Positions 890-62,013 of a stretch of DNA of 64,000 nucleotides are shown here, in pieces; the stretch's first letter is position 1; every line of letters begins with the position of its first letter. The stretch comes from Microthyrium microscopicum (Eukaryota). Below the pieces are notes generated by a model. The model saw nothing but the letters and a program-made list of their open reading frames with translations. It had not been told where the DNA came from and ran no database searches. Where the stretch lies: the NCBI GenBank assembly GCA_010405405.1, contig MU004231.1:3466401-3530400 (forward strand), in the 5' to 3' direction. Made by a program: the position numbers and the translations under genes.

Positions 890-1654
890 ATGGCAGAGCT
901 ACCACCCATCGACCGCCAAACAACAACTCCATTTCTCTTGCGACTCTTCTATCGAAATGGCTCCTTTCATCGGTAAGTATTCAAACCTGTCCTTACGTTG
1001 ATGTATAACGTATTACCTGACCACAGTAAGCTAATACAATTCTTCAGTCCCGACGAATTCGCCCCAAACTCATCTCTTCCTCAACACGTCCAAATATACA
1101 CATGGCCAACCTGCAGCCTCAAAGAGCTTACTCAACTGCTGACTACAGCCATTCCGAGTACCCTTCCTTCGCCCTCAGTCGGCACGCGACTCTGTTTTCG
1201 CCTCATGTACCCCAATACACACTCTGTCGGCCAAGGCGCAGGCCGATATCTCATAAAGGAAGTAGGCACTGTCGTCATAGGATCTGAGGACGCGCAGGAA
1301 GACGCGCCCATTGCAGAAAGACTAGAAGGGGATCCAGAGAAGACATTGCGGGATGTGCGCTTTGTCATTGGCGACTACGTGTCGTGTGCTATTTTGCCGC
1401 CTCTCCCTAATGGTGATGTCGCGCCAATACCTGCTCGCGGACCTGGGCCAAGACCTCCTCCGACTGTTCCTCGTGGCGAGAATGGTTTTGGCGGTGGATA
1501 TGGCGGTGGTGGTCGTCGAGGAAGCGGTCGCTTTGATGGCGGGCGTGTTCCGCAAGGAGAATGGAGACGAGGAGACGTGCCACCTCCTTCCATGGGCGGA
1601 TATGGCGATAGGGGAGGGGGTGGCAGAGGACGAGGACGAGGAAGAGGCTGGTGA
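890..1654 (+). CDS. SAP18: Sin3-associated polypeptide SAP18 with C-terminal RGG tail; intron 973-1047
   Basis: Exon 1 MAELPPIDRQTTTPFLLRLFYRNGSFH, then a GTAAGT...CAG intron, then VQIYTWPTCSLKEL and KTLRDVRFVIGDYVSCAI, which are typical SAP18 motifs. Confidence 0.9.
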
Positions 1655-2929
1655 GCTGCCGGTGAACATGATGACTTTGTCTAACCTGCGCGATGCCATG
1701 CGAACGTCGCTAGCTCAACAAGCATCATCTCCATCAGGTCTTGATCGAGAACTGGCTAATGCCTACAACATCCTGAGTCAGGTAAGATGAGCAAAATGCT
1801 TTATTTGGCTGGCTCATTGGTTTCTTCAGATAATAATATGACGACTGAATTCAACAAAGATACGGCGGCTTTAGAAACCATGTCAATCGAGAAGCTTACC
1901 CTTTCCAGGACATCACAAAGTCCAGGACAGATATCTGGAGTCCAGCGTACTAGCGTGTTCGTCTTATGCATTGAGCGAATGCGGGTGGGCAGCCCGGCCT
2001 ATTATTACGTCTGCTTTCGGACTCAGCGGATGAACCATTCCAAAGTCGTCTTACCGACTAGTTTGTCTTTATTATCACTGCCTATGTCGGTGTAGCGGGC
2101 TGACATGGTGGGAGGTTGTCAAGAATATCGAATGAGCCTCAAGATCGACGGCAGCGATGGAACCAAATAGGGTAATCTTGGCGTGGGTACAAGGGTCGAC
2201 CGGATTCAATGGATCAACATGAGCTCAACTTGTCGGAGAATTCTTGGAAGTGCTTTTACAACATGACAGCTTAACGAGCTCTTGACTCTAGAAGGAAACT
2301 ATGTCATGCAAGACCATAAGGCAAATACCCGCGAGATCCGGGCATTAGGGACCAAATGCGCAGCCCGGTTATGTCTCCGCGTTCCTTCCGAAGCAAATGA
2401 ACATGAGAATCAATTGCTAGAGTAATAGACTGGCGAAACTGGACCAGGCATACCAGGACATTAGTAATTTTCAATTGAATCTCACTATCATTACCAGCCA
2501 TATTGAAAATACCAATTCCTATGGTTATCTGCGAAAGAGCTCTTTCCGACCAGGCCGCCCTGTCAGGCTGTCAAATAGCACCTGCATGTGTTCGCTGCAG
2601 TGTTCACGCATTTTACTCTAAACCTGCCATTTCGTACACAGGTACCTGCACCACCTTTCTTGTTGTCGAATATTGCACTGCCTCCAACTTACCATACTTC
2701 TTGCTTACTTTGCCTCCCGAACTGTTTGCTGTTTCAAGATTCTTTGCTGTTTCTAGAATCATAGAGTAAACCCTTCCGAGCACTTCCCTGCCCTCTTCCC
2801 TACTTCTATCCTTTAGTACATTCACGGTACTAATTTGCCAATATAAAGTCAACCCCAATCAATGTTTAAGCACCCCAATCTGCATTTTGCCCCAGTCCGA
2901 TTGTCCGACACCTCGTGGCAATTGACACT

Positions 2930-5537
2930 ATGGCCTCTACTCCACACGAACCGACTCATTTAACTGGCAATCAGCCACATGACAATCGACCCTTGCCCAT
3001 CCAATCTTCATACTCCAGCGGATCTGAGGAAGACAACGACCTACTTCTGGACACTGGTCATATAAGCTCCACAGGAAGCCTAGCAGATCCAGGCGCATCT
3101 TTCATCGGAGTCAGCATTAGCCCCGTTCAGACCAGACTGGCTTCCGCAAAAACACCAGCTGTCGAAAAAGCCGATGCGATCAGAAACGGGGATGGTTATT
3201 TTTCGTTAGATACTCAATTAGAGACTTCCAACTCTGATCTTTCTACGCCTTCTGGGGGAGAGTCAACCTTTGATATCGCGGCTTCAGCTGGCAATGCTCA
3301 AAGTCGCCAACATGAAAGACATTACTTTTCACTATCGAATTATCCTACACAGCTCGACGGCCCAACTTCAGACACACAATCACCTGGAGGATCTGCTCAA
3401 GCTTCAGGTATGAGGGCAGGCTCGGACGATGTCCTGATGGACATGAGGAGGTTACAGCGACCATCAATAGGTAAGTCTATTCAAATATGTAATTGCGCAA
3501 ATCACATCCCCTTCGAAACCAGTCCATACTCTGTATAATTGGCGATATCACAGCTCGATATGCTGATCAAAATCATCTTGTAATATCGCTTGCTGCACGT
3601 TGGCGCAATCGTTATGTTGAACTCTGGCGAATTGCTTGTTTTCACAATTCTCGAATAGACATAGTACTCACTACGATATAGGACTCCGTCGGGTGAGTTC
3701 CGATAGCTCGCTCAATCAATGGCGAGCAATGTCAATTGCCAGCAGTTTGGGAGACGACACGAGATTTTTGAACGTCAGAGAGCAAGTAAACAGCCGTTTC
3801 AAGGCCATCAAAGACAGCTTCCAAGATTCCAATCTTCGCTTGCTATCTATACCGTCTTTGCCACCATTTCCGAATATGTCTAATATCAATATTCCAAATA
3901 TTCTGGCAGTATTCTCGGAACCGCTGGCTAAGGAAGAGGATGTCAAAACCTCGAGCCCCAAACGGAGGAATACTGCCTTTGACATCCGGGAATCAGTCAT
4001 GGAATTGATCAGGAAGAGGACTGGAAGCATACCTAAACCGTTATCCACGATTTACGATCCGTCGACTGACAGAGTTGCTGGCATGAAGCCCGCCGCCGCT
4101 GCTAGTCACCCCTATTTTGTCCAGGCTATTAGCCAACTCACCGGAGACATTGTGATACTGGGCGGCTATCGCGGATCTGTACTGCGATCAACTGACCACA
4201 CACGACTTTGGATCCCGATTAAAGCCGGTCTTAATCTCGCCAAAGTCAATCTTCAAGTTGGTCTCGAGGATGAGGACGAGGAAAGGATGGCAGAATCGAT
4301 TGTTCCTGACGGGATGCTTACACACATTGGACCTATTGATATCTCTCGGCGGCTTATCAAAAGACTACGTGCCTGTCCTAATGCAAAGTCAGGCAAACTT
4401 CGGGTGCATAATTATGGTTACGATTGGCGACTTAGTCCTAGTAGACTGGCCGATGATCTACGCCAATTTCTTGAAACTCTTCCTTGTAATGCTCCTGATA
4501 TACCCCCATCTCAGCGGGGTGCTACAGTCATTGCGCATAGTTTGGGTGGTATCATCACTCGACATACCGTGAACCAAAGGCCAGATCTCTTCGCGGGTGT
4601 GTTATACGCAGGAACACCTCAGAACTGTTCAAACATCCTTGGACCGCTACGCAATGGCGACGATGTTCTTTTCAACTCCAAAATTCTTACCGCAGAAGCC
4701 AATTTCAGCATGCGCACAAGCTTCATTTTTCTACCCCTCAACGGAAAGCTCTTCATCGATGAAACGACCAAAAAAGAACTACACGTAGACTTTTTCGACG
4801 TCAACAACTGGATCAAATACAATCTCTCACCCTGCGTCACCAAACCAGCTCGCAGCAAGCGCCAAAGCCTTCTCGGCTCAATCAAACCAAACCTCCCCAG
4901 CCTCAACGATGCCATGAACAACATCCCAATCTTAGGCCGTCGTCTATCCAGCAGGAAACCCAAAACTACAGCCTCGTCAGACAGCGGAGAGTCCTTTGAA
5001 CAAGTACAGCATACCCATCTTCACAGAACTCACACCGTCTCCCTCGTGCCACAAATGACGGCCACAGGCAACAGATCTCGAGGACCCTCCACCAACCACT
5101 CATCCATCCCATACGAAGCAGCAGTCGCCTATCTTACCCGCACACTAAAACGCAGCAAGAAATTCAAGGAGTTCTCGCTACACAACAATGCCCATGCCGA
5201 AGCCAATGCATACCCGCCATTCGCAGTCATATACGGCAAGTCCGAACCAACCGTCAGTGCGGCACGAGTAGATGGCTACGACTCGATCAAGCGCGCAGAC
5301 GTATACGACAACCTATCATTCGCCAGCGGCGACGGCGTAGTCCTCGCGCGTGAATCAATGCTGCCCACTGGATATAGGGCAGCACGTGGAGGAGTAGTTG
5401 GCAGTGACAGAGGACATATTAGCCTCCTAGGCGATCTAGAAGCCGTTGGTCGCTGCCTGGTAGCCATGAGAAAAGCTAGAATAGCTGGCGTGGGAATGGG
5501 CACTTCAGCAACTCAAGGCGTACATCGCGCGCAGTAG
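2930..5537 (+). CDS. Alpha/beta-hydrolase, LCAT/lipase-like (similar to yeast YJR098C); intron 3471-3681
   Basis: Motifs ILGGYRGS, YGYDWRLS, nucleophile elbow AHSLGG, GDGVV and GHISLL. Two ORFs are joined by a GTAAGT...TAG intron; the N-terminus is disordered. Confidence 0.75.
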
Positions 5538-37878: not shown

Positions 37879-38700
37879 ATGAGCGACAGCGCAGTGCGCC
37901 GGCGGACGGCAGCAACAAGCAATGACACCAAACAAGAGAAAGCAGCGAAAGGCTCACCAAGTCAAGCTGACGAACCCATCCGCTTCGGCGTTCTCGACAT
38001 CCTACGCATCCTGCTAGGCCTCTTCGTCCTAAGCTCCGCAATGAGCTGGTTTATAAACGGCGACTCCATGCTCTGGGGCTGGAAGCCATGGTTCACGCGT
38101 ATAGGTCCCATATCTACCTGGCTAGTAAGCTTCCACCCTTCTCCACCTCTATTGCATCACCCTTTGCTAACAAACATACAACAGAAAGGACCAATCGTTC
38201 TCACCGATGCCGAACTCCTAGCCTTTGACGGTTCAGATATCAACAAGCCAATCTACGTAGGCCTTAATGGCAGTATTTACGACGTCTCCTCGAATAGAGG
38301 GACGTATGGGCCGGGGGGATCATATTCGTTTTTCGCGGGGAGAGATGCAGCGAGGGGATTCATTACGGGGTGCTTTAAAGATGATTTGACGCCGGATATG
38401 AGGGGCGTGGAGGAGATGTACATCCCTATAGATCAGGATACAGATCCAGTGCTGTCGAAGGGGCAGATGAAGATTAGGAGGGATCAGGAGAGACGGGCGG
38501 CGAAGAAACGGGTCAAGGATGGGATTGATGGGTGGGCTGATTTGTTCAGTGGTGGCACTGGGAAGCCATATTTCTACGTTGGATATATCAAGCGTGAGGA
38601 AGGTTGGCTGGAGAAACTGCCAAAGAGGGAATTGTGTGAGTCAGCAGTAAAGTCACGACCTGCGCGAGATCCAGCTCCAGACCCTGCGGCAGAGAAGTGA
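37879..38700 (+). CDS. Cytochrome b5-like heme/steroid-binding (MAPR) protein with N-terminal TM; probable 60-nt intron 38125-38184
   Basis: ELLAFDGSD...IYVGLNGSIYDVS...YGPGGSYSFFAGRDAARGFITGCF. Confidence 0.9.
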   Translation: MSDSAVRRRTAATSNDTKQEKAAKGSPSQADEPIRFGVLDILRILLGLFVLSSAMSWFINGDSMLWGWKPWFTRIGPISTWLVSFHPSPPLLHHPLLTNIQQKGPIVLTDAELLAFDGSDINKPIYVGLNGSIYDVSSNRGTYGPGGSYSFFAGRDAARGFITGCFKDDLTPDMRGVEEMYIPIDQDTDPVLSKGQMKIRRDQERRAAKKRVKDGIDGWADLFSGGTGKPYFYVGYIKREEGWLEKLPKRELCESAVKSRPARDPAPDPAAEK

Positions 38701-41959: not shown

Positions 41960-42904
41960 TGTTTTTATGGATGAATACCCTTGCAGTTTACGAATATGGA
42001 TGCACGATTATAATGTACAAATAGCGGATATCAAGGGTGTATTTGGGATAGCGGAGGCGATTTTGCGAATTGAGTAATTGAACTAAACTACCTACTAGGA
42101 CTGTATACAGTTCCATCAGCTCTTCCAGTGTGTATAGAGAGGTACGAGGTTCACATCTTGGATTCGGTGTCGGATCAGGTTATGTTGTCTGGACTGAGAT
42201 GCTGTGATGTGGAAACAGTGGTCAGCTAATCGTTGGTAGCCTTCCCTTTGCGGATAAGACCTGACAGGATGGCGAAATAAAGTATGATCGCTGCCATAAA
42301 CGCTGCTAAATAGAAGATGCTGTATCTCCCACCGCATTCGATGGCAAATAGCACTTATAAAATAGTGTAGCATATGGGAGCAGGCAATGCTAATGGGTCT
42401 ACGCCATTTGCTCTGCCAGCTGGTTATAGACCAATGTCTCAACTTATCATGTCTTAAATGCCCAATACTGACTCCTGAGGTTGAAGAAATGAATAGAAGA
42501 ACAAAGGGCGAGCAAGACACTTGATGCAAGACAAAACAAGCACTTTTTTGATGCAGCCCCCCACCCCCCTCCCCCACATCAGAGCAGGAAGCACGATCTA
42601 ACTTCTGTCGTGCTTCTTGCTTCTCCAAACTCTCCACTCCACCTCAATACCCATCTTCTCAATTGCGCCTGGCCATATTTACACCTCTCGACTTTCTAAA
42701 ACCTTCACTTGGTGACATCTTCTGTTTGATTCTCTCCTTCCTTGCTCGTACTTGTTCTTCTTGGCAGTCACTTTGGTCCAGGCCTTACCTTGGTACCAGG
42801 AGGAGGCAGCAGCGTTCCGCACCATGATCAACTCAATTACTTGATCTCTCCCTTACTTCCTTCTTGTTTTCTTGAAACGAGCCAGCCCACAGTCAATCGC
42901 AACC

Positions 42905-45900: not shown

Positions 45901-46666
45901 CGCCCAAGCTGCTCAAGCTGCCGGCATTTTCGGCGCCAACGCGATGCAACTCGCCCAAGCCCTCCAACCCAATCTCTTCGCAAACCAACCCGTCCAAAAT
46001 CATATGCAACACCGCGCCCAAGCACTCGCAGCCAATTTCAACGCCATTGTCGCCGCCGCACCACTCAATAACGGCCAACAGCCGAACGCCAACAACAACC
46101 CCAGGGGCGTCTGGCCCCAACGTCGCGCCGCCCACCTCGCCGCCGTCCCACCAGCCGCTGCAGCAGGTGAAGATGCAGACAGCTGGAAGGGTCCCCATCG
46201 CACCGGCTCCTGGCCCTATGTCATCGACTCCATCTCACCAGGCCTAACCCTCGCGACTGTCCCCAACGCACACCCAGCACGTACTGTCCTACCAGCCGAC
46301 CACCACCTCACTATCATTGAGTTCAAATCATGTGGCTACGCACATTTAGTTGTGCCAAATGTAGATTTCGACATGGCCGAGACTGTCGTTAATAGTCGCG
46401 CGGGCTCGGCACTGATTAGACGGGCTATGACATACTGTACTGAGATGATGCCTGGCAATCGCGATCACTTGTTGGGACAAGTTAGCCAGTATTTGCCGTG
46501 GGGAGAGGATCATGTGTTGAGACACTTCTGGGGGTTCAGAGTCGGTTGGGAGGACCAGCAGGAGAGACTGGCGGCTTATTATGATGGCTTTCAGTACGGT
46601 GGGACCGGGAGATTTTCTGGGGTTTTGGAGAAAATTGAGACGGTGGTTGGGGATGAGGAGGAGTAG
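42905..46666 (+). CDS. Large F-box domain protein (~1250 aa) with an LRR-like central/C-terminal region
   Basis: F-box LLPNEMYSMILSHLSRDDIKSLRLTCKEI; LRR-like LKNLTVL, VEHLTLTNCWI and LQKLTLDSVSL; single intronless ORF. Confidence 0.8.
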   Translation: MEAWNINQDVGSNESSDNNNRTDPPRTSDTARFRRYLSRTAEPDTVVISDYLDAALAQTDSNTTIIPPTNRRANDSSRTRATTRATSSQAVAQVVDNPFSDPTATTADAADSTLANGVGANIRSALSWSQYRTLRHQDRLANGLPPLEGPRRLQPLLQDQQQTLLASEEQAILAGLIGQDDTVNMSSDGANSIISSMRNSGGDNLTLLAKLHLLSLRTNLGASYDADTIAHALSGLNPRTCLLYVLEPSPTGSDVWPDIRDFSKTPARLTAMSSHWLSSQARRAGDARPSANAMFDQEANNIDESIRSTRASAPLLRAAMAQVPILRQLLTSNDNNAQSEPMSTHVDMSNAQPMMIIPNDPARRPTWPQDQPLLPNEMYSMILSHLSRDDIKSLRLTCKEIELRISSKLFETVVVPFNTEIYGMLQGIKSFPSKKAPGKNKGKGKMKETEETEGIEGGKLVWKNLATNDVYNGHGIDVFRGFGPHMKKFGMSFEVDEEVLSALPRKELLQLVKTYWGEYEWPYPDYQRFKEIARLENTADETPLMVKAFSYLTIVEELAISIDSGLGWLHGPDTSLHTRIFKKPPPVFGNRFPVPDRRSEAQKRLWELLHKLSPTPDGDSIAGSVVRHRLVPFSKEAFELIHRRNVALEVEPPTTPLFELRSLLDFDRHHDELGQLSDIIHSGAHNPSWDTSGKRYKPKHATGILSFEDAPTPEDSANTISPLQPNNLTKPQKEWLLETEWAQRAFISSYMLAIMDNAFAFKNVHTFNFSRISTHYISQFFRDDFWDSIPNLKNLTVLAIQEWQMVVKDEAGYVDMKKKTPSTGCCILEELLTDYIAPRRNIKYLNIGWAAGGEHESGAYGRNQQLAPCPLMPWAWLDGGLSDLRLLKKEMILLPSVEHLTLTNCWIAGVVLQLLVKKQCAVALQKLTLDSVSLSGHKSGWEDVLSDTNLPDPPAPGNVPPAPPPPPPLGHVPGMPLQFGHLPAQAGAANPVPGQVQMTAQAAQAAGIFGANAMQLAQALQPNLFANQPVQNHMQHRAQALAANFNAIVAAAPLNNGQQPNANNNPRGVWPQRRAAHLAAVPPAAAAGEDADSWKGPHRTGSWPYVIDSISPGLTLATVPNAHPARTVLPADHHLTIIEFKSCGYAHLVVPNVDFDMAETVVNSRAGSALIRRAMTYCTEMMPGNRDHLLGQVSQYLPWGEDHVLRHFWGFRVGWEDQQERLAAYYDGFQYGGTGRFSGVLEKIETVVGDEEE

Positions 46667-49004: not shown

Positions 49005-49831
49005 GTCGACAAGTGAAGCTCAGAATCTAGGAGTAGATATAGCAAGATTGAGTAATTGACGAGCCCAAAGTTCGAACGGTACAAGTGATAGAAGATGTGA
49101 CAAAAATCCCAAAGCTGGGCATCAAAGGAAGCGATTATCTGCACTGAGGGTGATGGTTTTTATACCACTCTGGCCATGTACTTTATCGTGTGAGCCTTTC
49201 CCACCCAAATCGCGCTGTTAGATAATGTGCAGTAAAGATCAAAAAGGCTTTTTTGAGGCCGGCACTCGCCTAATTGATTTGACTCGGCAGTTGGGCATCC
49301 AATAGGCCCGAATGTATATAAAGCTGAGAGATGATTTGGCTCAGCCTGATGGTTCATATCACTAAATGGCCGCATATGAACAAGCTTGGAGGTTGTGGAA
49401 CGACAAAATCTTTTACCAGGTGAGCAAAGCAGCTCGTATGCCACGTCGATTTAATCCTGTAAGATAATGGATGGCACACTGCGAAGACTCATTGGTCGCC
49501 AAGTGGTGGGCGTCACGATCAGGCTGAAGATTTTGATGCCCAAAGCTGCGCGGACAAGAGTTCATTGAGCCCAATTTAAAGGCATCAATGCAATGCTTCA
49601 TGCCTCAAAACTTGTATGGATGTATCAATTGCGGTTGAAACTGATTGTTGAGATTCAATTGCTTGTTGGTAGTAAGGAAATAATGATGGTATAGCATTGA
49701 ACTTTGGAAATCATGGAGACATTAAAAATGGTTGCTTGTTTCTAAAACTAAAGAAAACCCAGAACAGTCGCTTGAACAACCCAGAAGAGTACCTTATTTA
49801 ACATGACCCATAATCGACCGCGCCAGTTCCA

Positions 49832-52453
49832 TTACATGTCTTCATGCTCATAGCCCACATCCCCATCGCCATCATTCAAGTCGTCGTTCGGATCGTCGAG
49901 CTCATCCTCACCGCCCTCATCCAGTTCAGCCTCTGCATGAGGGTCGTCGAGTTCAGCCTCGGGTTCAACCTCATGCCCAGCCTCAGCGCCGACTTCCTCA
50001 TCAGCAGGATCATATTCACCAATCTCTTCATCATCGACCTCTACATCGCCTTCGTTGAACTCTTCAATGTCATCATCCGGCTGCGCTGCCTCGACTTCTT
50101 CACCATCGGCGGGTACTTCATCTTCGTCGACAATCTCATCATCTTCATTCCACTCCTCAATTTCTTCACCTTCAGCAGGTTCTTCCACTGGCTCCTCATG
50201 TCCTTCAGTGACGGCTTCATGCTCCTCAGCTGGCGCAGCGTCATGGCTGGCCTCGAGTTGTGAGTCGTGAGGGCCTTTCTCGTCGACCAGTTCGCCATCC
50301 ACTTCAGGATCATACTCAACTACTTCATGCTCCTCTTCAGTGGGCTCGTGGTCGGCAGCTTCGTGGTCTGCTTGCTCGTGTTGACCATCTTGCTCGTGTT
50401 GCTCATCCCCTTCGTGATATTCTTCATCCATGGAAGGATCCCATTCATGAACTTCTTCTGTGCCGTCGTGATGCTCTTCAGTGCCCTCATGGTGCTCTTC
50501 GTGCGATGCAGCTTCAGTGTGAGCGCCATCTTGGCCATTGGCGTGTTCTTGCTCGTCCCTTTGAGCGTCGCCGTTGTCTACGCCTGCATGTCCATTGTTA
50601 TGAGCATCATTTTGAGCATTGTCATCTTGAGCACCGGCATGGCCAGATTTGTGCGCATCTTGAGCGTTATTGTCATTTGAAATATCACGAGACTTGTCCT
50701 CGGGAGAGCTATTGGATCCCCCTTGGTTGCCCGTATTGCTCGATGGTGCAGGGGTCGAGTGGGACGCTGGGGCGGCGGTGGGCATTAAGTTGAATAGACC
50801 TGGTTGTCCGCCTGCGTTCAGCCATGACTGAGCAACAGGTGCTGCAGTAGGGGCTGGCGCTGGTTGCACAGCTGCTGGCTGAGCTGCGGCAGTTAGGACT
50901 GGAGCTGGCGCCTGTGCGGTCGGCTGAACGGCTGCGAGCATGACTGGAGCCTGGCCTGGGACATTGCTGGCAATCATGTACACAGGGGCGCTGGCAGCAG
51001 CTACAACTGGAGCCGCTGGTGCCGCAGCGACGCCGGCCGGGGCAGCAGGTGTAGGAGTGCCAGCGGCAGCGGCAGCGGTGGGAGCCGGTGCTGGAGTGGT
51101 CGTAGCAGCAGCAGCAGCAGCAGCAGGAGTTGGTGGAGCAACGCCATTGATCAAGTTGTTGAATGAGGTCGCAACTCCGGCGGCTCCTTTATTAACAGAA
51201 TCGATGTGATTTGCGACGCCATTGAGTACGGTCCCAATAGTCACGGTCCCTGTGGCAACAGCAACCGCAGCTCCGCCGGCTTTGAGAACGTTGTCCATTG
51301 TAAGGGCGCTTGCTGCTGTTGGCGCTGCTGGGGCCGCGGGAGCTGCTGGTGCGGCATCTGGTGCTTTAGATATGGGATCGGCTGGTTTTGGACCTGGTGC
51401 GGCATCTACTCCTCTTGTTGCAGGAGCTGCTGGCTTTGGAGCTGGAGCATCTACAGATTTGGGGGTAGCTTTAGCGTCCACAGGCTTCGCGGGAGCATTG
51501 GCTTTTGGTGCCACGGCTTCAGCTTTCTTTGGTGCTGTGCCCGCTGCTGGTTTTGCTGCCGGCGGCGTGGCCTTCTTTTCTGTCGGCTGAGCAATCTTTA
51601 CTTGAGTAGTGGCAGGTGCTGATGGAGCAATAGCAGCAGGAGCGACAACAGATTTGGCAGGAACTGGTGTAGTAGTAGCTGTCTTTGCAGCATTGGGACT
51701 CGTCTGAACCAGTATCACCGTGGCAGGAAGTGCTGCCGTTGCAGGCGCTGGAGCAGCAGATGCCGCTGGAGCTGCTGGTGCTACTGGTGCTACTGGTGCT
51801 GCTGGTGCACTTGTAGTAGGCTGTATTTGTTGAAGCGTAACAAGTTGTACTGGAATCGCTGTTGCGGTGGAAGGAGGAACGACTGGTGCGGCTGTCGCGG
51901 CTTTTGCTGCTGGCTTCGGCGCGGCTTTCGCTGCTGGCTTTGGCTTAGGGGCCTCTGACTTCAGAACCACAACGATAGGAGATGTCTTAGAAGCAGTTGC
52001 TGCTGTTGGTTTGGCTGCTGCGGGCTTCGGCGCTGTGCTAGGAGTGGATTTGGGAACATCTTTGGCGGCTCCCGCTGGTGGCGGATTGATGCGTCGCTTC
52101 ATCTTTACCAATGTACCATCTGGTTTCCGTACAGTCACAATTTTGAATTCGGCATCTTTTGGTGCATTTGGTGCCTCTGGTTTCGCGGGAGCGTCAGCGC
52201 TGGCGACTGGACCATCTTGAGCTTTGGCAGGTTCAGTTGATTTGACGGCAAGATCAGTATCAGCTGGCTTTGCTGTTGTAGTTATGCTGTCGGTTTTCTG
52301 CTCGATTGTTTCGACGACTTTGGCTGGAACAGGAGCGTCGTCTTTGATTTCAGTGACAGTAACGGTTGTGGCCTTAACAGCGTCTTTGACTTCGACGGAA
52401 TCGACGCTGGGGGCAGGCACGTCAACGGGCGAAAGTACTGCTGTGGAAGCCAT
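49832..52453 (-). CDS. 873-aa low-complexity protein: Ala/Pro/Lys/Thr-rich body, very acidic His-containing C-terminus, RKPDGT motif
   Basis: Long uninterrupted ORF with no obvious signal peptide; motif FKIVTVRKPDGTLVKMKRR at about 52091-52147. Confidence 0.8.
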   Translation of the reverse strand: MASTAVLSPVDVPAPSVDSVEVKDAVKATTVTVTEIKDDAPVPAKVVETIEQKTDSITTTAKPADTDLAVKSTEPAKAQDGPVASADAPAKPEAPNAPKDAEFKIVTVRKPDGTLVKMKRRINPPPAGAAKDVPKSTPSTAPKPAAAKPTAATASKTSPIVVVLKSEAPKPKPAAKAAPKPAAKAATAAPVVPPSTATAIPVQLVTLQQIQPTTSAPAAPVAPVAPAAPAASAAPAPATAALPATVILVQTSPNAAKTATTTPVPAKSVVAPAAIAPSAPATTQVKIAQPTEKKATPPAAKPAAGTAPKKAEAVAPKANAPAKPVDAKATPKSVDAPAPKPAAPATRGVDAAPGPKPADPISKAPDAAPAAPAAPAAPTAASALTMDNVLKAGGAAVAVATGTVTIGTVLNGVANHIDSVNKGAAGVATSFNNLINGVAPPTPAAAAAAATTTPAPAPTAAAAAGTPTPAAPAGVAAAPAAPVVAAASAPVYMIASNVPGQAPVMLAAVQPTAQAPAPVLTAAAQPAAVQPAPAPTAAPVAQSWLNAGGQPGLFNLMPTAAPASHSTPAPSSNTGNQGGSNSSPEDKSRDISNDNNAQDAHKSGHAGAQDDNAQNDAHNNGHAGVDNGDAQRDEQEHANGQDGAHTEAASHEEHHEGTEEHHDGTEEVHEWDPSMDEEYHEGDEQHEQDGQHEQADHEAADHEPTEEEHEVVEYDPEVDGELVDEKGPHDSQLEASHDAAPAEEHEAVTEGHEEPVEEPAEGEEIEEWNEDDEIVDEDEVPADGEEVEAAQPDDDIEEFNEGDVEVDDEEIGEYDPADEEVGAEAGHEVEPEAELDDPHAEAELDEGGEDELDDPNDDLNDGDGDVGYEHEDM

Positions 52454-53387
52454 GATAGCTGCTGGTAAGATATGATACTTGGGTGACTAGAGCGGATACT
52501 TTGAGTGAGTGTGAGTTTTGGAAAGATTGGTAGCAACTAGCAAGGCCTTGAATTTATCTATGAACTCTATGAAAGCTGCAGAGATACAGCCACCACCCTG
52601 CAAAAGGTCGAATTGGAACTAGAATCAGCAAGCAACACATTGCTAGCGCCATGGCTGATACAGAATCACGAGCAAGACTCTCGATCCCAATTGTGGATTT
52701 GACCAGAATCCTTGAATGGGAGCGAATTGAATGATCTAGCGCCTAGGGTCGGCCTAGCCGGTGTCTGGATGTATAATTTGTCCAAAACCGGATATTGGAC
52801 AGATGTTGTGGCTTTTTAGTCATTTATCATTGCGTGGCTCTCAAACCCAATTGATAACGCAGAGTCCCAGACCTGAAAGCGGTTTAACAAAAGAGACATA
52901 TGGAATATGCACAAGAGACGGGATGGATAAATAGTTCAGGTTGGCACATGCATAAGGCTGAAGCAAAGCTTGATTTAGATTAGCCTGGTTCCTAAATTGA
53001 TCGCTTGACTCTATGTGGTTAGCTTTTCGGGAGATCAACGAATCAGAAAGCTTGATTCGGCAAGACCGTCCGGTTCGGCTCCAGTCCAGATTCCAGGTTT
53101 AGCGATAGACCAAGTGATTGACAGGGGCACGAAAGCCACGATGCGCAACTACAACTGCCTCGACCACTCACGATGCCCAAGCCAAACCTCCTCCAACAAC
53201 AAACAGTGTTGGCTTTCGGTCTGGCCGTACCATCGCGTGCTTTCCTGAATCAAGCTTTTACGCTTAACTACAAGATCAGCTTAACTCGTCAATTAGTTTG
53301 AAAAGGCTTGTTTGGCTTGCTTTAGCCTTGCCCAGCCCACCTATCCGTATCAACTGACAACTCTTTTTTCAGCTCTGGTATTCTTGA

Positions 53388-53444
53388 GAAGAGAAGTCTT
53401 CAGACCCCCCTTCTTTAGACCCCCCGTCCTATAGGGGACCCCAA
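53388..53444 (+). repeat. Left terminal inverted repeat
   Basis: GAAGAGAAGTCTTCAGACCCCCCTTCTTTAGACCCCCCGTCCTATAGGGGACCCCAA. Confidence 0.92.
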
Positions 53445-56400
53445 CGCCTATTTTGGGCGTTTAATAGAGGTAATAGCGTAGCTACTAAATTTATTAGTAG
53501 ACGCTATTTTAGGCCTAATAGGGACGTATTTAATAGTAGAACTAGTAAGATTAAAGGGCAAGATCTTAATTAATTCTTAGCTAGTAGGGATTAATTTAAA
53601 GCTAAGATTTTAGTTAAAATATTAAATTTTAGTATTAAAGTTTAATACTACTATATAGATAGAAATAAAGGAAAGAAGTAATAGTAAAGACAAAGGAAAG
53701 AATAGATTTTAAAGTACCTATAATTCTTTACTATTCTTCTAGGTTATTATAGAAAGGATATAATATAATATTATGCTCTTTTTTACTATATCTTAAATAA
53801 TGCTAATTAATAGGAGTTAGCTTATAATAGCCTATACTTACCTCTTTCTACTTTTTAGTATCTAGGCTCTACGTAACTATAGACTTTAGTAGAATTAGAG
53901 TATTATTATCTATAATTTATAAATTATTAATAGAGATTAATATTATAGTATACTAAGTAGGGGTATTAAAGACTTTGTTATTATTAGTACTATTAAGATA
54001 GGCCTATTATAAATTATTAATAAACTAGAAGTAGTAGATAAAGTTAATTAGATTAATACTAATTCTAGGATCTTAAAGAATAGCAAACGTATATACGTAG
54101 AGGAAGAGATTATCTTACTAGTAATAATAGCTATAGCTATAAGTAGTAACGTTAATATAGTATTTAGCTTTATAATAGTAACCTTTATTATTACTAAAAT
54201 ATATAATAATAGTAGTAACTTTTAAGGTATCTTTAAAGGTATTAAAGTTAATAGTATATTTAGAAGCGTACTTATAGAAATCTTTAAGGTAAACCTTTTC
54301 TTAAGCTATAAAATGTTATATTAAGATCTCTTATCTTTAAGATAATCTTAAAATCTTTAAGTTTATAGCTTATAGCTATTCTATACGCTTCTTTATTACC
54401 TAATTCTAAATATAAATTAATAGTTTAATAAAATACTTATAGTACGCTTTCTTTATTACTAAGTTAGTAATCTTACTAAAATTAGATATAGTATAACTAT
54501 ATTTTAACGTAGAGAAGTATTAAAAGTTTTAAAGAGCTTTATTCCTCTAGGTCTTAATATAGGTCTTAAAGATTAGATTAATCTATAACCTTTCTTAAAT
54601 TACTTAATTATAGTAAACGTTACTATTAGTATAAGTAAGTTAGTATATAAGTTATTTATAAAGCTTATTATAAAAGTGCTTCTTTATATTCTATACTAAA
54701 TAGAAGACATAATAGCTTAGTATAAATTAAGAAAAAGTAGAGAAAATAGTATTCTATAAGTCTTTATTATAATTAGAAATAATTACTATTTAGTAACCTA
54801 TAAATAGGTTAGTTAAAGTAGTAGAAATAGTATAAAGTTATATTATAGTAAAGCTATAGAAAGGTCTTAAAGATATAATATTAATTTAATAGAGTAAATA
54901 GAATAGAATAACTAGCTCTAGAAGAGTCTTAGCGTTATATAATATTAAAATCTTACCTTTAAATATTATATTAACCTTTAGTATTACTATCTTATAGTTC
55001 TTATACTACTATAACTACGTATTATTATTCTTACTCTTAATAATTCTTTATATATAAATAACTAATTTATCCTTAGAATTAAATCTATAGGCTATAATAA
55101 GCTTTAGACTATACCTAATTTAATAATATATAGTATTAAAAGTTAAGTATTTAAGTAAGTACTTCTAAGTTGTTTAACTAATAAAAGAATAAATAAAGAT
55201 ATATTTATAGTACTCCTCTTTAACCTTTAGATACTTTATAATAGTTATAAGATTATAATATATTAACTACGCAAGATAAGAAAGAAATAACTTAAAGTTC
55301 TTCCTAAAGTTGTTTATAAATTTACTAAAAAGCTTATACTTTACTCTAGTAACTTACTAGTTACTTATATTTATACTTATAGTATACTTTAATATTATAA
55401 TAATATTTTTAGGTATAGTTTTAGTAGTAATATACGTATTCTATATAATAATCTACTTTAATATTAGCGTTTAAGATATTTACGCCCTTAATAAAGTAGA
55501 TATAGTAATATAGATATAGTTCTCTATAGAATTTAGCTTTATATAGACCTATACTATATTATTAGTATTTTTTAAGTGCTTCTTTAAGGTTATATATGCG
55601 CGCTATTTATATCTCGTAATAGCATAGTTATAAATCTATTATTTAGTTATATGCCCTAAACTAGTATTCTTCTTTAAATTATACTTCTCTTTTAATACGT
55701 ATAATTATACTTAATTATTAAAGTCTATAAAAGTCTTAAAAACTATACCTTTAAATAGCTTTTAAGGGGCATAAATGCTATAGAATAGCAGGCTAAATTC
55801 TATATTAAAATAGTAAAGATTAGATAAGAATAGGTAAAGTTAAATAGGTAAAGTTAAAAAGCAAAATTTTAGTATTTATTACTAATATTAGATATAGATA
55901 TTTATATATTTATACTAGAATTACTATTAAATACTATTTAGCTATATTTTCTTACTAAATCCTATCTCTTTATAATATTCTAATTAATTTTATAATATTA
56001 ATAGATATTAATAATAATAAAGCTATATTAATAGAGATTTTATAATATTTAGTATAAAATTAAACCTATATTATATATAGATATAATTTAGGTATATTTC
56101 TTTATAGATTCTTATATCTATATTATCTTCTTATATATTTTAGACTTAATATTAAGAGATTTTAACTCTTTACCTTTATAATCCTAAGCAATAATAATAT
56201 TAACGCTAAAGTTAAGATCTCTTAACATCCTATTCTATAAATACTTTAGTAGTATAATTTATTAACAAAAGCTATATTTTAATAGGAAATTTATAAAGCT
56301 ATAGCTATATATATATTAGTATATTTTAGTAAAGTTATTAAGCGTAATTTAGACTTAGAATTTAATGCGTCTAGAATCCTCTAGTAGTAAGTTCTTCCTA

Positions 56401-56500
56401 GTAAAGCCCTTTAATCTTACTATAAGATACTATAGGGTTATATATTTATATAGCGCGCTAGTACTAATTTTTAATAAGGAATATTTAAGGCTAGACGCCT

Positions 56501-56557
56501 TTGGGGTCCCCTGCAGGACGGGGGGTCCAAAGAAGGGGGGTCTAAAAACTTATCCTC
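56501..56557 (-). repeat. Right terminal inverted repeat
   Basis: Reverse complement GAGGATAAGTTTTTAGACCCCCCTTCTTTGGACCCCCCGTCCTGCAGGGGACCCCAA. Confidence 0.92.
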
Positions 56558-57293
56558 TATTCTTGAGGCTCCCACGCACCTGGGACTGGACCAACTGATC
56601 TGCTTTCCAATTACCACTTTAGGATTTTAGGACATGCCATTCCTGACATGGGATGATGGGACCAGAACTTCACGATACTTGCTTCGCCTGCAGCTAGACA
56701 TCGCACTTCGCTCAACCCCGGAGTTGGAATTAGTAAAAGAAATTGTAAGTTCCAACCACCGAGTCATCGACTACATGTTTGCTGGATTGGATTCATGGAT
56801 AGCCATTTTGACATGAGTACGACCCAAAAGTGGACTTGTCGAACCAGTATCTAGGTACATCGCTGTAATGACTTCAATGAAAACGGGGCGTCGTGGACTC
56901 ATGGATTGTCATTCGATATCTCTCATAACGCGTGAATATGAAATAAGAATGTTTTATAATCCCCACTACTGCCTATCTCTCGCCGCCTCTGCAAAGCGCC
57001 ACATGAACTATCATACGCTATGGCCATCTAGAACCTGTCCATCCACTCGGCTGGAGTACATGCATTTGAGGCGTATTGACGATCCGCAGAAAGGGTCCAT
57101 GCAAATGTATATCTACAAATTTCTGCCGAAATCGTTCCGACGCGTCCTCTTTAACAACGCGATTCGACTGGGCCCGCCCACCTCTTCATGCTAAGCTTTT
57201 GGCTGATTTTAACATCCCCCTAGCCAGTCTCTTGACCCTGAGACCAGTTTTGTGATACTCCTGTCAACCAAAGTTGTTAGATTTTGAATCGTC

Positions 57294-60200
57294 ATGGCAT
57301 CTTCTCCAGCTACAGATGCTACTACTAGCATGCCTACATGGCCACTTGGGGAACCTACAACTCCTACAACGCCTTCGACCGAAGCAAAACCAACTCCAAA
57401 AGTAACGACCGCAAAGGTGGCAGCTCGACCACCTCCAGGTTACAAGTTCGCAAAGGTTCGGAAACCGGATGGAACGATCGTTACAGTGAAACGAAAACTT
57501 TCTCCTGAGGAATTAACAGCTGCTGCTACAGCGGCTGCCGCTGTCGCAGAGACACAAGCTCAGAATACTGGAGAAAAGTCAACCGCAAAATCGCCAGTGA
57601 CACCTGATTCTCCAACAATAAAGGAGAGCACGCCAAGCTCTGCCAGTGTCGCCAGTCCTAGTGTCGCCAGTCCCGTAACACGCTCTCCAACACTGACAGT
57701 TCCTGGAAGCCCAATGACTGATAATGGAGAACCATTGTCGCCCGAGATGCAACAAGCCCTCGAGGCTCAAGGATTGCATCATCGAGAGAAGAGAATGTCT
57801 CGTTACCGATCTTCCATGATCCGAGGCCTTACGAACATGGTCGGCCATGCGTTGCCATCAGTCGATATTGGTGACTGGCATCATGGGGACGAACAGGTCG
57901 ATATAAATGATTCGGACAATGACATGGATGATGACGACGATGATAACGATCATACACTCCATGACGAGCATGGGCATGAGGACAATCATTCAAATGAACA
58001 CCACGACCCCGGTGAGTAGAAAACCACTTAATGCCATCCTTGACTAATTCTTGATAGCTGGCGATCAGCATATTCAAATGAAAACGGCTCCGCTTCTCAG
58101 TGCAGCTGCCGCTGGATTAGCAGGACCAGCACCAGGTCCACCACCTCCAATTCCTGCACAGTTAAACAGATCAGCTGCCTCAGAAGCAGATCCGAAGGCT
58201 GCTAATGAGAAAGAAACATATGGCTTGAAGATCAAGGAGCTCACCGAGATCGAACAAAAACGAGAGGATAGAGAAAAGCGATTGAAACATCATTGGGCCA
58301 ATGTGTCATTTTATATAATGGCTAGTCTGAGCATCATTCTTCCTTTGCTATTCCTCAGTAAGTCATTTTATAAGATAATTTCATCAAACAAGTGTAGGAC
58401 TAACGGTATGATAGTTCTCGCTATCTTCATCGGCGCCATGAAAGGCAAATCCGTCAACTCTGGATGGGGCAAACTACCAGATGCGATCATCTTCGCCATT
58501 TCCGCTTGGCCAATTGTGTTTGCTGCTGTAGTGGCTCAAGGTAAGAAATAGAATCATGATAAACCTGTGAATAAAGCTAACGATTCTTAGTGTTCAAATC
58601 CTATGCGACATACAAAGTCGAGAGAGGCATCAAGCTCATGGAACTTGAGCAGCTTATTGGAAGCAACTCATTTGGAGCCGCCATGAAGCAACCATTCCTC
58701 CTCCGTCGACTTGACGTACTTACACTTTTGCTCTTCTTAGTTTGGTGCCTTTCGCCTCTTGGATCACAAGGTTTACAACGTTGCTACAAACGCGAGGTCA
58801 CCATTAAAAACGTTACGGGTCCCGCCATTTCTGATGTATCCAACTTCACCAATCACGTCGCCTACGTTGATATGACTGGTCCTAACCCAATGTTTGGTGG
58901 CAGTGCTGTTACTTTCAGCGATCCAGTCAAAGGCGCGAAATTGCAGCTCATGTCAGCATACTTCGTCTCTGCCTTCTTGCCAAAGTCAGAACGTGACCTT
59001 GAAACGCAGGATAATGGCAACGACCAGGATCGATATGATAACCCTGCTATCTCACTCCCTGACGACAACGTTCCGGATGAGTTTTTCTTCGACGCGCCTT
59101 ACGCTTCCGCATACGGTGTAGCATTCGAATTACCAAACACTACATTCCCTGATTTCAAGCCAGCTGCGGCTGATAGTCATCAGACCAATACAAACATCTA
59201 CACCGACTACAGGACCTTCAACATGTCAGCACCTTATTATAACATCTCCTGTGGAGACTGGAAAATTGTTCATTTCAGCGATATCAAGGCTGACGGATGG
59301 AACTCGGCCGGCAATGATGGTACAATCATGCGAATGCTAGATCCAGACTTCACTGCGAATCAAACAGGCTTCCGTCCCAATTATATTGCTTTCGCTTCAC
59401 ACAATATTCTCCCGACGACATCATCGACAGAGGGAAATGCTCAAGATAACTGGGAGTACTCCATGATCGAATGCAAGTACAACCGGCACATTGTTTTGAA
59501 CGAAGTACAATGCATGCGAAACTCGGCAACTAATTTCGCTCCTTGGTGTTGGAATGACATGACCAACTACACTTCAGTCGATGACGATGACGACTCTGCT
59601 TTGGATGATTTTACAGCCGACTGGCTTGATGGAACATCTGGGCTCGGAAAACCTCTATTGCAATCAGCAAGTAAGTTCAACGTTTCTCGATTTCAATACA
59701 GTTACTAACGAACTATAGTCGAGAAATTCGTCGATGGTGGTATCATTCTAGATGATCCATTTCACAGAGGCGTTAACTTCAGCACATTCAACCTCAGCAA
59801 TTCCACTCCCCCAAAACAGTTCGAATACCTCTTCGGCTATGTCTTCACCACCTGGGTCAATCTAGCCTACTGCCCTGAATGTATTGACGCCGGCGGCTAC
59901 GGCTTCCTTCCTCCAGGTCGATATGACCTCTACAAGAACGTCACCGCCATCCACGAAATCAGCGATGAGGAGTTCAATCTTCGCGTGGGCTGGTATGTCC
60001 TATACCTTGCGTGTACCGTTATTCTACTCGTCGCTGGTATTGTCAGCACGATCTTGGAGTCTCAGACCGTTGCGCCTGACGTTCTAGGATACGTTAGTAC
60101 TGTTGCACGCAACAGCAAGTACCTTCATCTGCCGAAAACGAATTCGGCAATGAATGGTGGTGAGCGTTTACGCAAGATGGGTGGCGTCGAAGTAATGATG

Positions 60201-60296
60201 CAGGATGTTAAAGGAAATGCGGACATTGGCCGTATTGCGCTGGGTATGAAGCATGATCAAGCGAAGAGGTTACAGCCTGATAGACTTTATCGGTAA
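57294..60296 (+). CDS. Multi-pass membrane protein of an uncharacterised fungal family (W-x-LSPLG-x-Q signature) with an N-terminal RKPDGT motif; 5 exons
   Basis: Introns at 58012-58057, 58358-58414, 58541-58590 and 59671-59718 give one frame. It has N-terminal TMs, LEQLIGSNS, VWCLSPLGSQGLQR, a large loop rich in N-x-S/T sequons, a last TM, then PDVLGYVST...RLQPDRLYR*. Confidence 0.8.
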
Positions 60297-61143
60297 TGGT
60301 GGTGTCTGATTTTAAACATACTATTAATCGTAGATGTTCCTCTCGCGTATGTTTGTAATGATAACAACTATCTCAGATTATTTTGAGTAATCTTTGCTTC
60401 CTGAAGCCAATTTTAGCTACTAGCAAATTACTTCGACTTGTCAGCCACTTCAGATTGTGATTCTTCATACCAGGTAGGTTGATACTGACTGTATACTCTA
60501 CATGATCATAACCTTCTCATGACAATGTGCTCTCAGAGCTTACTCTAACTAAACGTACAGTTCAATCGGCAGAATACTCGTGATCTGTTGATATTGAGAT
60601 GGGATCTCAGCAGGAAGAGCATGGAAACTCATGGAAATATACCTGGTTGCCAGTCACAGCCTTACACGTTGAACCAAGGCGTACAAGGCTACAGCAACCC
60701 CCCAGTAAAGATCTGGACCAGTTCTTCAGTCTCAAAATGCTATTGCAATTCTGAATATTGATCATCTCAGATGTGTTGATGTTAAATCTACGAAGGATTT
60801 CATCATGTCAATGTAAGTGACTCGATTGTTTTCAATGGCCCTTGTGCTAAATGTATCAGCATTTTTCCTTGCTCTGATTCGGTCGAGAACGACCAGCGAA
60901 GATTATTACGTGAATTCCTCTTCCGAGTCCATTCAGAGAAAGCGTTCACAAAGTCAAGTTCTTTCGGCAGCTTTGCATTTGAAGCTCACGGTATCTTTGA
61001 TATCACCGAAGAGCTCAACGAAACACGACTTAAGCGACATCTCGAGTGGGGAGACAAAATACGTCCCCCGTCATCCTTTATTTCATTCTTTGATTCACTT
61101 GGTTAATTGACACCATCCCACCATTTCAAGGCCAGAAGCTAAT

Positions 61144-62013
61144 TTGAACACAGGAGCGGCAGAGGTTCGAGCAAGATTTCAGTACCACAATGCCCCTCCA
61201 GCATATTTAGCAACAGACGTATCGGTCACACGAATCAAGACTTCTGGCATGAGGAAAGCAGAGTATCATCCCGCAGATTCCGATGAAGTTATCCCACTAT
61301 GGGTTGATACAACGAATCTAGATGAAGATACCATGTCCATGTCCATAGAGAGCCTGCAAAAGATTCCGGTTACAGTATGGATCAGCATTGCTGAAGTCCG
61401 GCTAGTGTTCGACATACCGCATTGGAAAGGCCAGGATGACGAGTGGCTTGCATGTGGCCATATACTCAAGGCTAAGGTTGATCGAGTTATGCATTACGAC
61501 GGAGACAACGGTGAATGGAATCTCGTTACGCCGCATTGGAACAGCATCGGTGAAGCGGATGCCTTTGCAAATGTTGAAGTGGAGGCTCACTCCAAGGAAG
61601 ACAGCATACCTGTCATCTTTGAAGAAGATGAAGAAGAGGCTCATTCTAAGGAAGGCAAGATATCTATTATCTTTAAAGAAGATGAAGAAGAGGCTCACTC
61701 TAAGGAAGTCGAGATATCTGTTATCTATGAAGAAGATGTTAAGGAAGACGAGACGTCTTGTACCATTGTAGAAGATGAAGAAGAAGCGCAGTCCCTAACT
61801 GGTGGCATACCCGTTACCTCAGAAGAGGACGAAGAGGGGGTCCAGCGCAAGGAGGTTAACTCTACTACTTCACAGGTTACAGAAGTAGCAGATGAAATAC
61901 AGAAACTCCGGCTTGCGCTGGAAGAGAGTGTAGCCGTTTTGGACGATTGGTCTAAAAGCTGCACGGAGCACACAATAGCATTTATGGCAGCGGTAAGGAA
62001 GGCTTCTAGATAA
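61144..62013 (+). CDS. Hypothetical protein with acidic 18-aa tandem repeats; start uncertain (first in-frame ATG at 61249)
   Basis: Open frame of 289 codons with repeats EAHSKEDSIPVIFEEDEE / EAHSKEGKISIIFKEDEE / EAHSKEVEISVIYEED. Confidence 0.55.
   Translation: MNTGAAEVRARFQYHNAPPAYLATDVSVTRIKTSGMRKAEYHPADSDEVIPLWVDTTNLDEDTMSMSIESLQKIPVTVWISIAEVRLVFDIPHWKGQDDEWLACGHILKAKVDRVMHYDGDNGEWNLVTPHWNSIGEADAFANVEVEAHSKEDSIPVIFEEDEEEAHSKEGKISIIFKEDEEEAHSKEVEISVIYEEDVKEDETSCTIVEDEEEAQSLTGGIPVTSEEDEEGVQRKEVNSTTSQVTEVADEIQKLRLALEESVAVLDDWSKSCTEHTIAFMAAVRKASR
61582..61850 (+). repeat. Coding minisatellite, ~54-nt unit, 3 good and about 2 degenerate copies
   Basis: GAGGCTCAYTCYAAGGAAG...ATCTTTRAAGAAGATGAAGAA recurs at 54-nt spacing. 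Confidence 0.75.

Follow-up and report, generated by a model that had tools for sequence, protein, structure and literature searches.

Do two neighbouring genes whose products share one short segment within otherwise unrelated architectures form a functional pair? The question is raised by a 64,000-nucleotide stretch of Microthyrium microscopicum (contig MU004231.1 of assembly GCA_010405405.1, positions 3,466,401 to 3,530,400), hereafter the window, in which the gene for a soluble protein, S (49832..52453, minus strand; an intronless open reading frame (ORF) of 873 aa), and the gene for a membrane protein, M (join(57294..58011, 58058..58357, 58415..58540, 58591..59670, 59719..60296), plus strand; 933 aa), point away from each other. 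A first-pass annotation had proposed that the segment common to the two products was conserved selectively in this pair and might couple them in the way that NWD2 is coupled to HET-S. We found that each protein carries a copy of a conserved basic β-hairpin of about 25 residues that has no annotation; in two families specific to Pezizomycotina this hairpin lies near the N-terminus, either alone or repeated once in tandem.

The segment was found where it had been placed, at 52082..52150 (minus strand) in S and at 57438..57506 (plus strand) in M. In S it reads EFKIVTVRKPDGTLVKMKRRINP (aa 102-124, net charge +5) and in M GYKFAKVRKPDGTIVTVKRKLSP (aa 49-71, net charge +6). In a single BLASTP comparison of the two products it was the sole significant segment (12/22 residues identical, 18/22 positive, E 3e-6), and a six-frame scan of the whole window with four loose patterns matched these two places only. 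Twelve of 23 residues are identical, four of them written with the same codon and eight with a different synonymous one, and nucleotide identity is 40/69. Because eight of the 12 identical residues differ in their synonymous codon, as had been claimed, and the pattern scan and BLASTP both match, the motif has been kept at the protein level and is no recent copy of DNA. Both gene models are consistent with a public sequencing run (X1), the type of which is unrecorded and which held 54% of the sampled words of a 10-kb stretch. The M model, read from the sequence with four short GT..AG introns and an open frame of 933 aa, was matched by a contig of 2992 nt (on 57169-60361) that joins across exactly those four introns, and a contig of 3140 nt (on 49767-52906) covered S without a joint, reaching ~450 nt ahead of the ATG. 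Spliced M and unspliced S thus both exist in run X1, as cDNA would give.

A profile of 36 columns, A1, was built from 13 copies of the motif and searched against 1.84 billion representative proteins. It matched 161 of them at E≤1e-3, with 46 reaching E≤1e-10; the hairpins of S and M score 55.9 and 64.5 bits, respectively. The consensus is PPG[FY]K[ILV]VKVRKPDGT[IL]V[KT]VKR[PK][IL]. The motif is therefore a module found family-wide rather than a speciality of this pair, and the first-pass annotation, which was right that the motif is real, forms a hairpin, is conserved at the protein level and recurs in a paired setting, was too narrow in treating it as a feature of the pair only. Classification covered the best 150 of the 161 matches. 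At least 88 of them were assigned to the M family by hidden Markov models (HMMs) built on either the M core or the M arm minus its hairpin, seven were assigned to the S family by eye (a check by HMM was circular, the HMM having been built from those seven), and 55 were left unclassified. Many of the 88 are first-exon fragments that end in the first transmembrane helix (TM1). The unclassified matches are mostly fragments of <200 aa; six of the 55 are long repeat proteins in which only part of the profile is matched, one of these being from Tritrichomonas and three of the other five resembling β-propeller repeats by sequence. Among the matches listed, the hairpin is single in 57 M and five S members and double in 31 M and two S members, and the first hairpin starts at a median of residue 38. 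Where there are two (n=33), the distance between them has a median of 49 residues and a range of 35-65.

The two positions of the tandem, which we call slots A and B, differ in sequence. First-slot hairpins often follow PPG[YF]K..KVRKPDGT.VTVK[RK]KL[ST]PEE, with PPxY in 22 and PPxF in 12 of 81 M hairpins and [ST]P[EDG][ED] after the hairpin in 24 of the 81. Second-slot hairpins follow.[EQ][FY]KI[IV]TVR.PDGTLVKV[KR]RP[IV], with [RK]P[ILV] after the hairpin in 20/29 and PPxY in 0/29. In the window, M has a first-slot hairpin only and the hairpin of S is of the second-slot type. An AlphaFold2 model of the M arm (76 sequences) predicted strands at residues 50-56 and 62-68 with a pLDDT of 77-88 in an arm of otherwise low confidence, which bears out the earlier suggestion of a β-hairpin with a PDG turn; the same model has a helix at 71-89, a disordered stretch and a long helix at 150-186 with a pLDDT of ~93. 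When the alignments of M arms and of S were compared with hhalign, they matched over 74 columns corresponding to the double-hairpin region (probability 98.4, E 4e-15), a match that is partly circular as both alignments had been gathered with the motif. The hairpin was covered by no Pfam family in S and the M exons (E≤1) or in seven homologs (E≤0.1), and profile A1 returned nothing meaningful from PDB sequences (best E 0.062). A literature search by motif strings, which work under other names would escape, gave no report on the hairpin or on either family.

Some matches to the profile depart from this layout. In P0085, P0088, P0090 and P0109 the order is reversed, with an acidic tract (SADWDDDDD..GDEPL) first and the hairpin at residues 255-300, and three of the four have a TM1-like helix at the end; P0085 reaches the HMM of the M core weakly (E 2e-5), and P0088, P0090 and P0109 are unclassified. 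In P0050, a parabasalid coiled-coil protein of 1824 aa from Tritrichomonas foetus, eight stretches match the hairpin profile (e.g., AVRNEDGTIQKVIRPI), either through convergence or as a distant non-fungal use of the same hairpin.

Judged from its sequence, the 933-aa protein is a member of an unnamed family of four-helix "WCLSPLGSQ" membrane glycoproteins of Pezizomycotina. No Pfam family was found in any M exon at E≤1. A search with exon 4 retrieved 15 homologs (E 2e-38 to 1e-16, 29-42% identity), and the 12 for which an organism was named were all from Sordariomycetes (Coniochaeta, Schizothecium, Podospora, Xylariales, Sporothrix and Paramyrothecium); later matches came from Lecanoromycetes (Xylographa and Lambiella) and from one Dothideomycete (Myriangium). 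M is a multi-copy family: Xylariales sp. PMI_506 has five or more of its members. The hairpin is present in 11 of the 15 exon-4 homologs, which are all those with a long N-terminal arm, and at least six have two copies; in the remaining four, which lack it, the N-terminus starts just before TM1. An HMM of the family recognised the window exons at E 5e-74, 4e-72 and 9e-34. The conserved core comprises SAWPIVFAAVVAQ in TM2, the KVERGIKLMELEQL loop, WCLSPLGSQ, a Cys-bearing loop and a tail of the form APDVLGY..ARNS.YL.LPKT..GRLYR, and nearly invariant columns in alignment A4 are W114 P115 .. V134 E135 R136 G137 .. S179 P180 Q184. A maximum-likelihood tree built from 27 M cores places the window M in a Sordariomycete-type clade (92/90).

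Family hairpins head a disordered cytosolic arm of 250-450 residues before TM1, for which alignment A5 gave the consensus R..RFK..L..G, IEIGD..DGDE and an Asp/His tract (in its full form, ..R..RFK..L..G....P.....D..DGDE..SDDD). The arm of the window M bears its one hairpin, then MSRYRSSMIRGL, VDIGDWHHGDEQV and an Asp/His tract; the part encoded at 57741..58010 (plus strand) holds the long helix (aa 150-186, MQQALEAQ..RSSMIRGL), VDIGDWHHGDEQV at aa 190-202 and the Asp/His tract at aa 203-239. By hydropathy, 58303..58766 (plus strand) would encode TM1 (aa 322-340), TM2 (aa 360-381), the KVERGIKLMELEQL loop and TM3 with WCLSPLGSQ (aa 420-440). A large loop follows (58767..59981, plus strand; aa 441-829) with 10 N-x-S/T sequons and seven Cys, four Cys being nearly invariant across the family, and then, from hydropathy and the alignment, TM4 (aa 830-852) and a conserved, putatively cytosolic tail, APDVLGYVSTVARNSKYLHLPKT...RLYR (59982..60293, plus strand). 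The earlier view that the large loop is probably extracellular agrees with these sequons and Cys, and the loop is probably extracytoplasmic. Given four helices and a sequon- and Cys-rich loop of the kind that is glycosylated, we infer that both ends of M are cytosolic.

The hairpin of the window M is flanked by PPGY (57432-57443, aa 47-50) and by KRKLSPEE (57495-57512), which may be a ubiquitin-ligase docking site or a phospho-regulatory site, or mere capping of the hairpin; KRKLSPEE has the pattern of a basophilic, proline-directed and acidic Ser site. PPxY motifs dock the WW domains of Rsp5/Nedd4-type ubiquitin ligases. Like such sites, PPGY is present in M, directly on the first strand; unlike them, PPxF replaces it in 12/81 first slots, second slots have none and the hairpin of S lacks PPxY. 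As PPxF alternates with it in the first slot and PPxY never occurs in the second, the Tyr may be only the first hydrophobic residue of the hairpin. One M homolog, P0010 of Paramyrothecium foliicola (1281 aa), is labelled "FAD-dependent monooxygenase OpS4" and has an FAD-binding domain after GMKHDSAERLKTG; this looks like a fused gene model rather than a real fusion.

AlphaFold2 modelled the M homolog P0001 (27 sequences; pLDDT 73, pTM 0.63) as a four-helix bundle with a β-rich loop, in which residues ~190-580 form very long strands of 17-23 residues (model m13f7f040812f). Foldseek returned nothing at E≤0.001 with this model; its best rows for the whole model were class II membrane fusion proteins, with E 0.09-1, probability ≤0.13 and TM ~0.1. 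The idea that the M loop is a protein of this class (EFF-1, flavivirus E, bunyavirus Gc), whose ectodomains are elongated β-sheet folds of three domains, was dropped, as VIA-align gave no support; a second look with VIA across 990 chains found no class II fusion protein, its best match (Z 6.5) being a helical bundle. The wide structure search was dominated by four-helix bundles that matched the TM helices of M. In the ESM Atlas, the clusters nearest P0001 consist of hypothetical proteins of Ascomycota (0.97-0.99 by features, TM 0.63-0.67 by structure), and DUF3176 (PF11374)/CLZ1_N (PF28351), families of fungal membrane proteins, are found in 10-81% of cluster members. With hmmscan, 0/27 M sequences matched either family at E≤1. 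A remote kinship of M with DUF3176-type proteins is possible; because DUF3176 and CLZ1_N are without known function, such a link would add only a name.

The 873-aa protein is, by layout and composition, a member of an unnamed family of apparently soluble Ala/Pro-rich Pezizomycotina proteins with an acidic tail. It has 22% Ala and 12.5% Pro, no Cys, no clear TM helix and no signal peptide-like start, and no Pfam family was found in it at E≤1. The family layout runs from an N-terminal ..VTVTE.. stretch through one or two hairpins within about the first 130 residues and a long low-complexity linker to an acidic tail in which [IV]E[DE][WFY][DN]P.. repeats are interspersed. It is shared by P0061 (Coleophoma cylindrospora, 821 aa), P0143 (Myriangium duriaei, 926 aa), P0134, P0030, P0103, P0119 and P0126, and by the proteins of the metagenomic loci L001 and L005. 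In the window the acidic/His tail (49835..50776, minus strand; aa 560-873) has the repeats VHEWDPSMD, IEEWNEDDE, IEEFNEGD and IGEYDPADE, and the Coleophoma protein has five copies of [DE]W[DN]PSME. A BLASTP comparison of the window S with P0061 gave two regions in the same order, the tail (aa 568-798, composition-adjusted E 5e-9) and the hairpin (E 5e-5). A central Ala/Gly/Val-rich segment (51143..51307, minus strand; aa 383-437) has the highest hydropathy of S, 1.56 over 19 residues, and resembles by eye segments of other S members (alignment A2, with L001, L002 and L005). Homolog searches with residues 88-135 gave 21 candidates, none at E≤10, and with alignment A2 none of 7998 scored proteins reached E≤0.01, low-complexity words having probably crowded out relatives. 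As S lacks a signal peptide-like start and a clear TM helix, and as the N-terminus of M appears to be cytosolic, the two N-termini would share one compartment, the cytosol.

His/acidic tracts had also been noted in both proteins, and are there: aa 560-873 of S are 38% Asp and Glu with 26 His, and aa 190-239 of M consist of VDIGDWHHGDEQV and a D/H-rich run. That the two tracts are homologous was rejected, because BLASTP of VEAAQPDDDIEEFNEGDVEV against VGHALPSVDIGDWHHGDEQV gave E 0.53 and hhalign gave no match; we treat the resemblance as one of composition. The hhalign register also placed a possible decayed first slot of S at 52262..52327 (minus strand; aa 43-64, PAKVVETIEQKTDSITTTAKPA), a weak assignment made from that register only, which profile A1 did not detect; the second-slot place of M (57558-57614) is ordinary linker. 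Decay in this register would be complementary, with slot 1 seemingly decayed and slot 2 intact in S, and slot 1 intact and no slot 2 in M. An origin of S by inverted duplication or fission of the first exon of M at this locus was considered and dropped, since S is old, being found in Leotiomycetes, Dothideomycetes and several metagenome lineages, and since M relatives with slot A only occur elsewhere.

What, then, might a hairpin common to a membrane protein and a soluble one do? We propose that it would be a small docking module on a cytosolic arm, bringing the arm of M and S to the same partner or surface, and that S would be a free-standing version of that arm, acting as a co-factor or helper or as a competitor. 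Since the hairpin has a net charge of +5/+6, its target would probably be acidic, whether a patch on a protein, an acidic tail or a membrane of negative charge. Taken as a whole, this proposal seems to us about as apt to be right as wrong; the docking mechanism on its own deserves less confidence than that.

Whether the genes are kept together bears directly on this proposal. Divergent they are, as annotated, and the term head-to-head needs the qualification that the start codons are 4.84 kb apart and that 3.17 kb of this is a degraded DNA transposon (53387..56558) with 58-nt terminal inverted repeats (53387-53444 and 56501-56558) that are 88% complementary. The interior of the relic (3056 bp, 21% GC) has a TpA/ApT of 1.57 and a (CpA+TpG)/(ApC+GpT) of 0.10, against 0.68 and 1.33 in flanking DNA, which we take to be the mark of repeat-induced point mutation. 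The spacer between S and M was ~1.7 kb before the insertion of the transposon, the relic of which (~3.2 kb) now divides it, and those ~1.7 kb were probably a shared promoter region. Scanning metagenomes with a tight alignment of eight motif rows matched 86 stretches, and seven loci were confirmed. At one of them, L002, an S gene adjoins a divergent M-family gene, with start codons ~0.9 kb apart; the big exon of this M (1022..2962, minus strand) was recognised at E 3e-87, and its upstream exon has a degenerate version of the hairpin (KTVKVKMPDGTFKVKV) besides TM1 and an IGSD..DE..HHSD segment. L004, an M gene with both hairpins, has no second hairpin gene in 3.2 kb upstream, and L007, an S gene, has no M in the 1.45 kb of upstream sequence present. 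On the 1350-bp metagenome contig L006, an M-type TM4 segment (2-283, minus strand; E 5e-12 to the M HMM) and a hairpin-bearing S-like ORF (117-908, plus strand) overlap on opposite strands, a geometry unfit for two intact genes.

Several results weigh against our proposal. The S gene of L001 has no M within 9.9 kb upstream or 8 kb downstream, that of L005 has an unrelated ORF ~0.9 kb upstream, and the M gene of L003, which has both hairpins, has no second hairpin gene in 9.7 kb upstream. Sequence beyond M in L002 (340-560) was located in L001 at 8703-8924, ~1 kb upstream of S. In Myriangium duriaei, the S gene and the single M copy that came to light are on separate contigs, 1,479,541 and 1,536,155 bp long. 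The pair is thus present at one of three independent S loci with usable upstream sequence (L002 of L001, L002 and L005, excluding the window), a tiny sample of related loci whose S genes are mutual orthologs with ~68-71% DNA identity. The M genes of the window and of L002 are, by their sequences, not evident orthologs, because they fall in different clades, L002_M grouping through a very long branch (4.0) with a Lecanoromycete clade of the same tree, and the two pairs need not share an ancestor. Beyond the hairpins, hhalign found no match between M arm and S, so that the likeness of their acidic tracts may be composition only. Outside the hairpin, kinship within the S family is itself tenuous: BLASTP of the window S against that of L001 gave no significant segment (best E 2.2), and an HMM built from nine other S members, their hairpins excluded, gave the window S scores of -70.1 and 2.0, no higher than those of block-shuffled copies (up to -49.5 and 4.0). 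The S class is circular, as noted above, with 55/150 listed matches unclassified and six of those partial-profile repeat proteins, and what the hairpin would bind is guessed from its charge. The adjacent pairing, whose recurrence had been suggested as a test, is met again in L002, a second and independent divergent pair, and is absent from L001, L005, the surroundings of M in L003 and, for the one M found, Myriangium. A conserved linkage did not hold up, the genes being unlinked at most of the S and M loci examined. Because it is present in L002 and absent from L001, L005 and, with that same proviso, Myriangium, linkage of S and M is facultative; it would be kept by some lineages rather than define an obligatory two-gene system.

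The simplest competing explanation is that no functional link exists, the hairpin being a generic module of cytosolic disordered arms in proteins that act independently and are neighbours by descent or by chance. The unlinked genes of L001, L005, L003 and Myriangium (one M copy found) would be expected under it, as would M genes beside S that are not evident orthologs in the window and L002, a spacer holding a 3.2-kb degraded transposon and an M family with at least five copies in Xylariales sp. PMI_506. It fits less well with the frequency of pairing, which by a rough estimate is far above chance: with a few M copies per ~10,000 genes, an M neighbour would be expected at ~1/1000 of S loci, against the 1/3 of S loci found, in the same divergent orientation as in the window. 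Moreover, S and M are the sole classes recognised in the 150 listed matches, 55 of which are unclassified. We consider independence doubtful, if a serious possibility. Direct coupling, in which the hairpin of S pairs with that of M by β-sheet extension or polymerisation and so tethers S as a scaffold to M, is a less probable account, and unlikely. In it, M with its lone slot A and S with its lone slot B would make up in trans, in this lineage, what the two slots make up in cis in other M proteins. The fixed spacing of the tandem slots (33 proteins, median 49 residues) fits joint action, the window M keeps slot A only and the window S only a hairpin of slot-B type, both hairpins would be cytosolic, and the divergent pair is met again in L002. 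Yet both hairpins have a charge of +5/+6, and unless a counter-charge is present this makes their self-association less favourable. Moreover, a single hairpin is found in at least 57 M and five S members among the matches listed, most S and M loci examined are unlinked, and the M relatives with slot A only form a group (e.g., P0105 and P0108), so that lacking slot B is nothing peculiar to this locus. A prediction of the complex of M aa 40-239 with S aa 88-140 scored 0.00 against a mark of 0.34, with no controls, and is no evidence either way. A wider version, which we likewise think improbable, would make the tandem hairpins a new cytosolic coupling module by which S, as an acidic scaffold, is recruited to, or competes for, the cytosolic arm of M, as a surface glycoprotein of an undescribed family; this would be a membrane-to-scaffold system specific to Pezizomycotina, in some lineages a divergent gene pair, with its slots split here between two genes so that the module would be complete only when S and M meet.

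Two further explanations draw on known systems. In yeast, the inner-nuclear-membrane signal of Heh1 and Heh2 consists of a strong bipartite nuclear localisation signal and a long unfolded linker. The pattern VRK-x8-KRK/KRR in both hairpins could accordingly be read as a bipartite import signal that would place S inside the nucleus and M in its inner membrane, and like Heh1 and Heh2 M has N-terminal basic clusters and then a disordered arm of 250-450 residues between hairpin and TM1. Unlike in those proteins, conservation is as high at the non-basic positions (P-D-G-T and the alternating hydrophobics), which are predicted to make up a hairpin, as at the basic ones; this points to a fold and not to charge alone, and a large loop of glycosylation type with conserved Cys suits a protein of the surface or the secretory pathway. 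Such a sorting role is very unlikely. The analogy that had first been drawn, with amyloid signalling of the NWD2/HET-S kind, in which the motif of one protein would impose a prion-like fold on its partner by templating, has next to no probability. Those pairs join a NOD-like receptor (NLR; NACHT or NB-ARC with repeats) with an N-terminal motif to an effector (such as HeLo, HELL or SesA) with a C-terminal motif, the motifs adopt an amyloid fold, and the genes are usually adjacent. The likeness is one of gross layout only, adjacent genes with one motif of ~20-25 residues in otherwise unrelated architectures. Pfam revealed no NACHT, NB-ARC, HeLo, pore-forming or similar domain, and hence no NLR, in S and the M exons (E≤1) or in seven homologs (E≤0.1). 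In place of a C-terminal motif on an effector, the hairpin is N-terminal in both proteins (aa 102-124 of 873 and aa 49-71 of 933). Its charge of +5/+6 and its predicted two-stranded form argue against an amyloid fold, and it is carried family-wide by 161 representative proteins, mostly with no partner gene in view, linkage being optional. With no NLR, no HeLo-type effector, the wrong motif placement and inconstant adjacency, assignment to the NWD2/HET-S family is refuted.

Around the pair, the window holds other genes. Just downstream of M, an ORF at 61111-62013 (plus strand) has repeated ..EEDEEEAHSKE.. units and no Pfam family. Pfam matches identified genes with a VWA domain (16623-17642) and a MARVEL domain (26416-27345), an amidase gene (35647-37056, E 2e-89) and a cytochrome b5-like gene (37807-38700), and a 1273-aa ORF at 42845-46666 has a weak F-box-like match.

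The novelty at this locus lies in one small module shared by two sizeable families of filamentous ascomycetes, neither of them characterised or represented by a Pfam model. The hairpin, a peptide of 25 residues, is a concrete handle on both. If it proves to be no docking site, two genes would still have been cleanly annotated and a conserved motif newly described. If it does prove to be one, it would be a new short recognition element in the cytosolic disordered regions of fungal proteins, and S would be the first candidate partner or regulator of the M membrane proteins.

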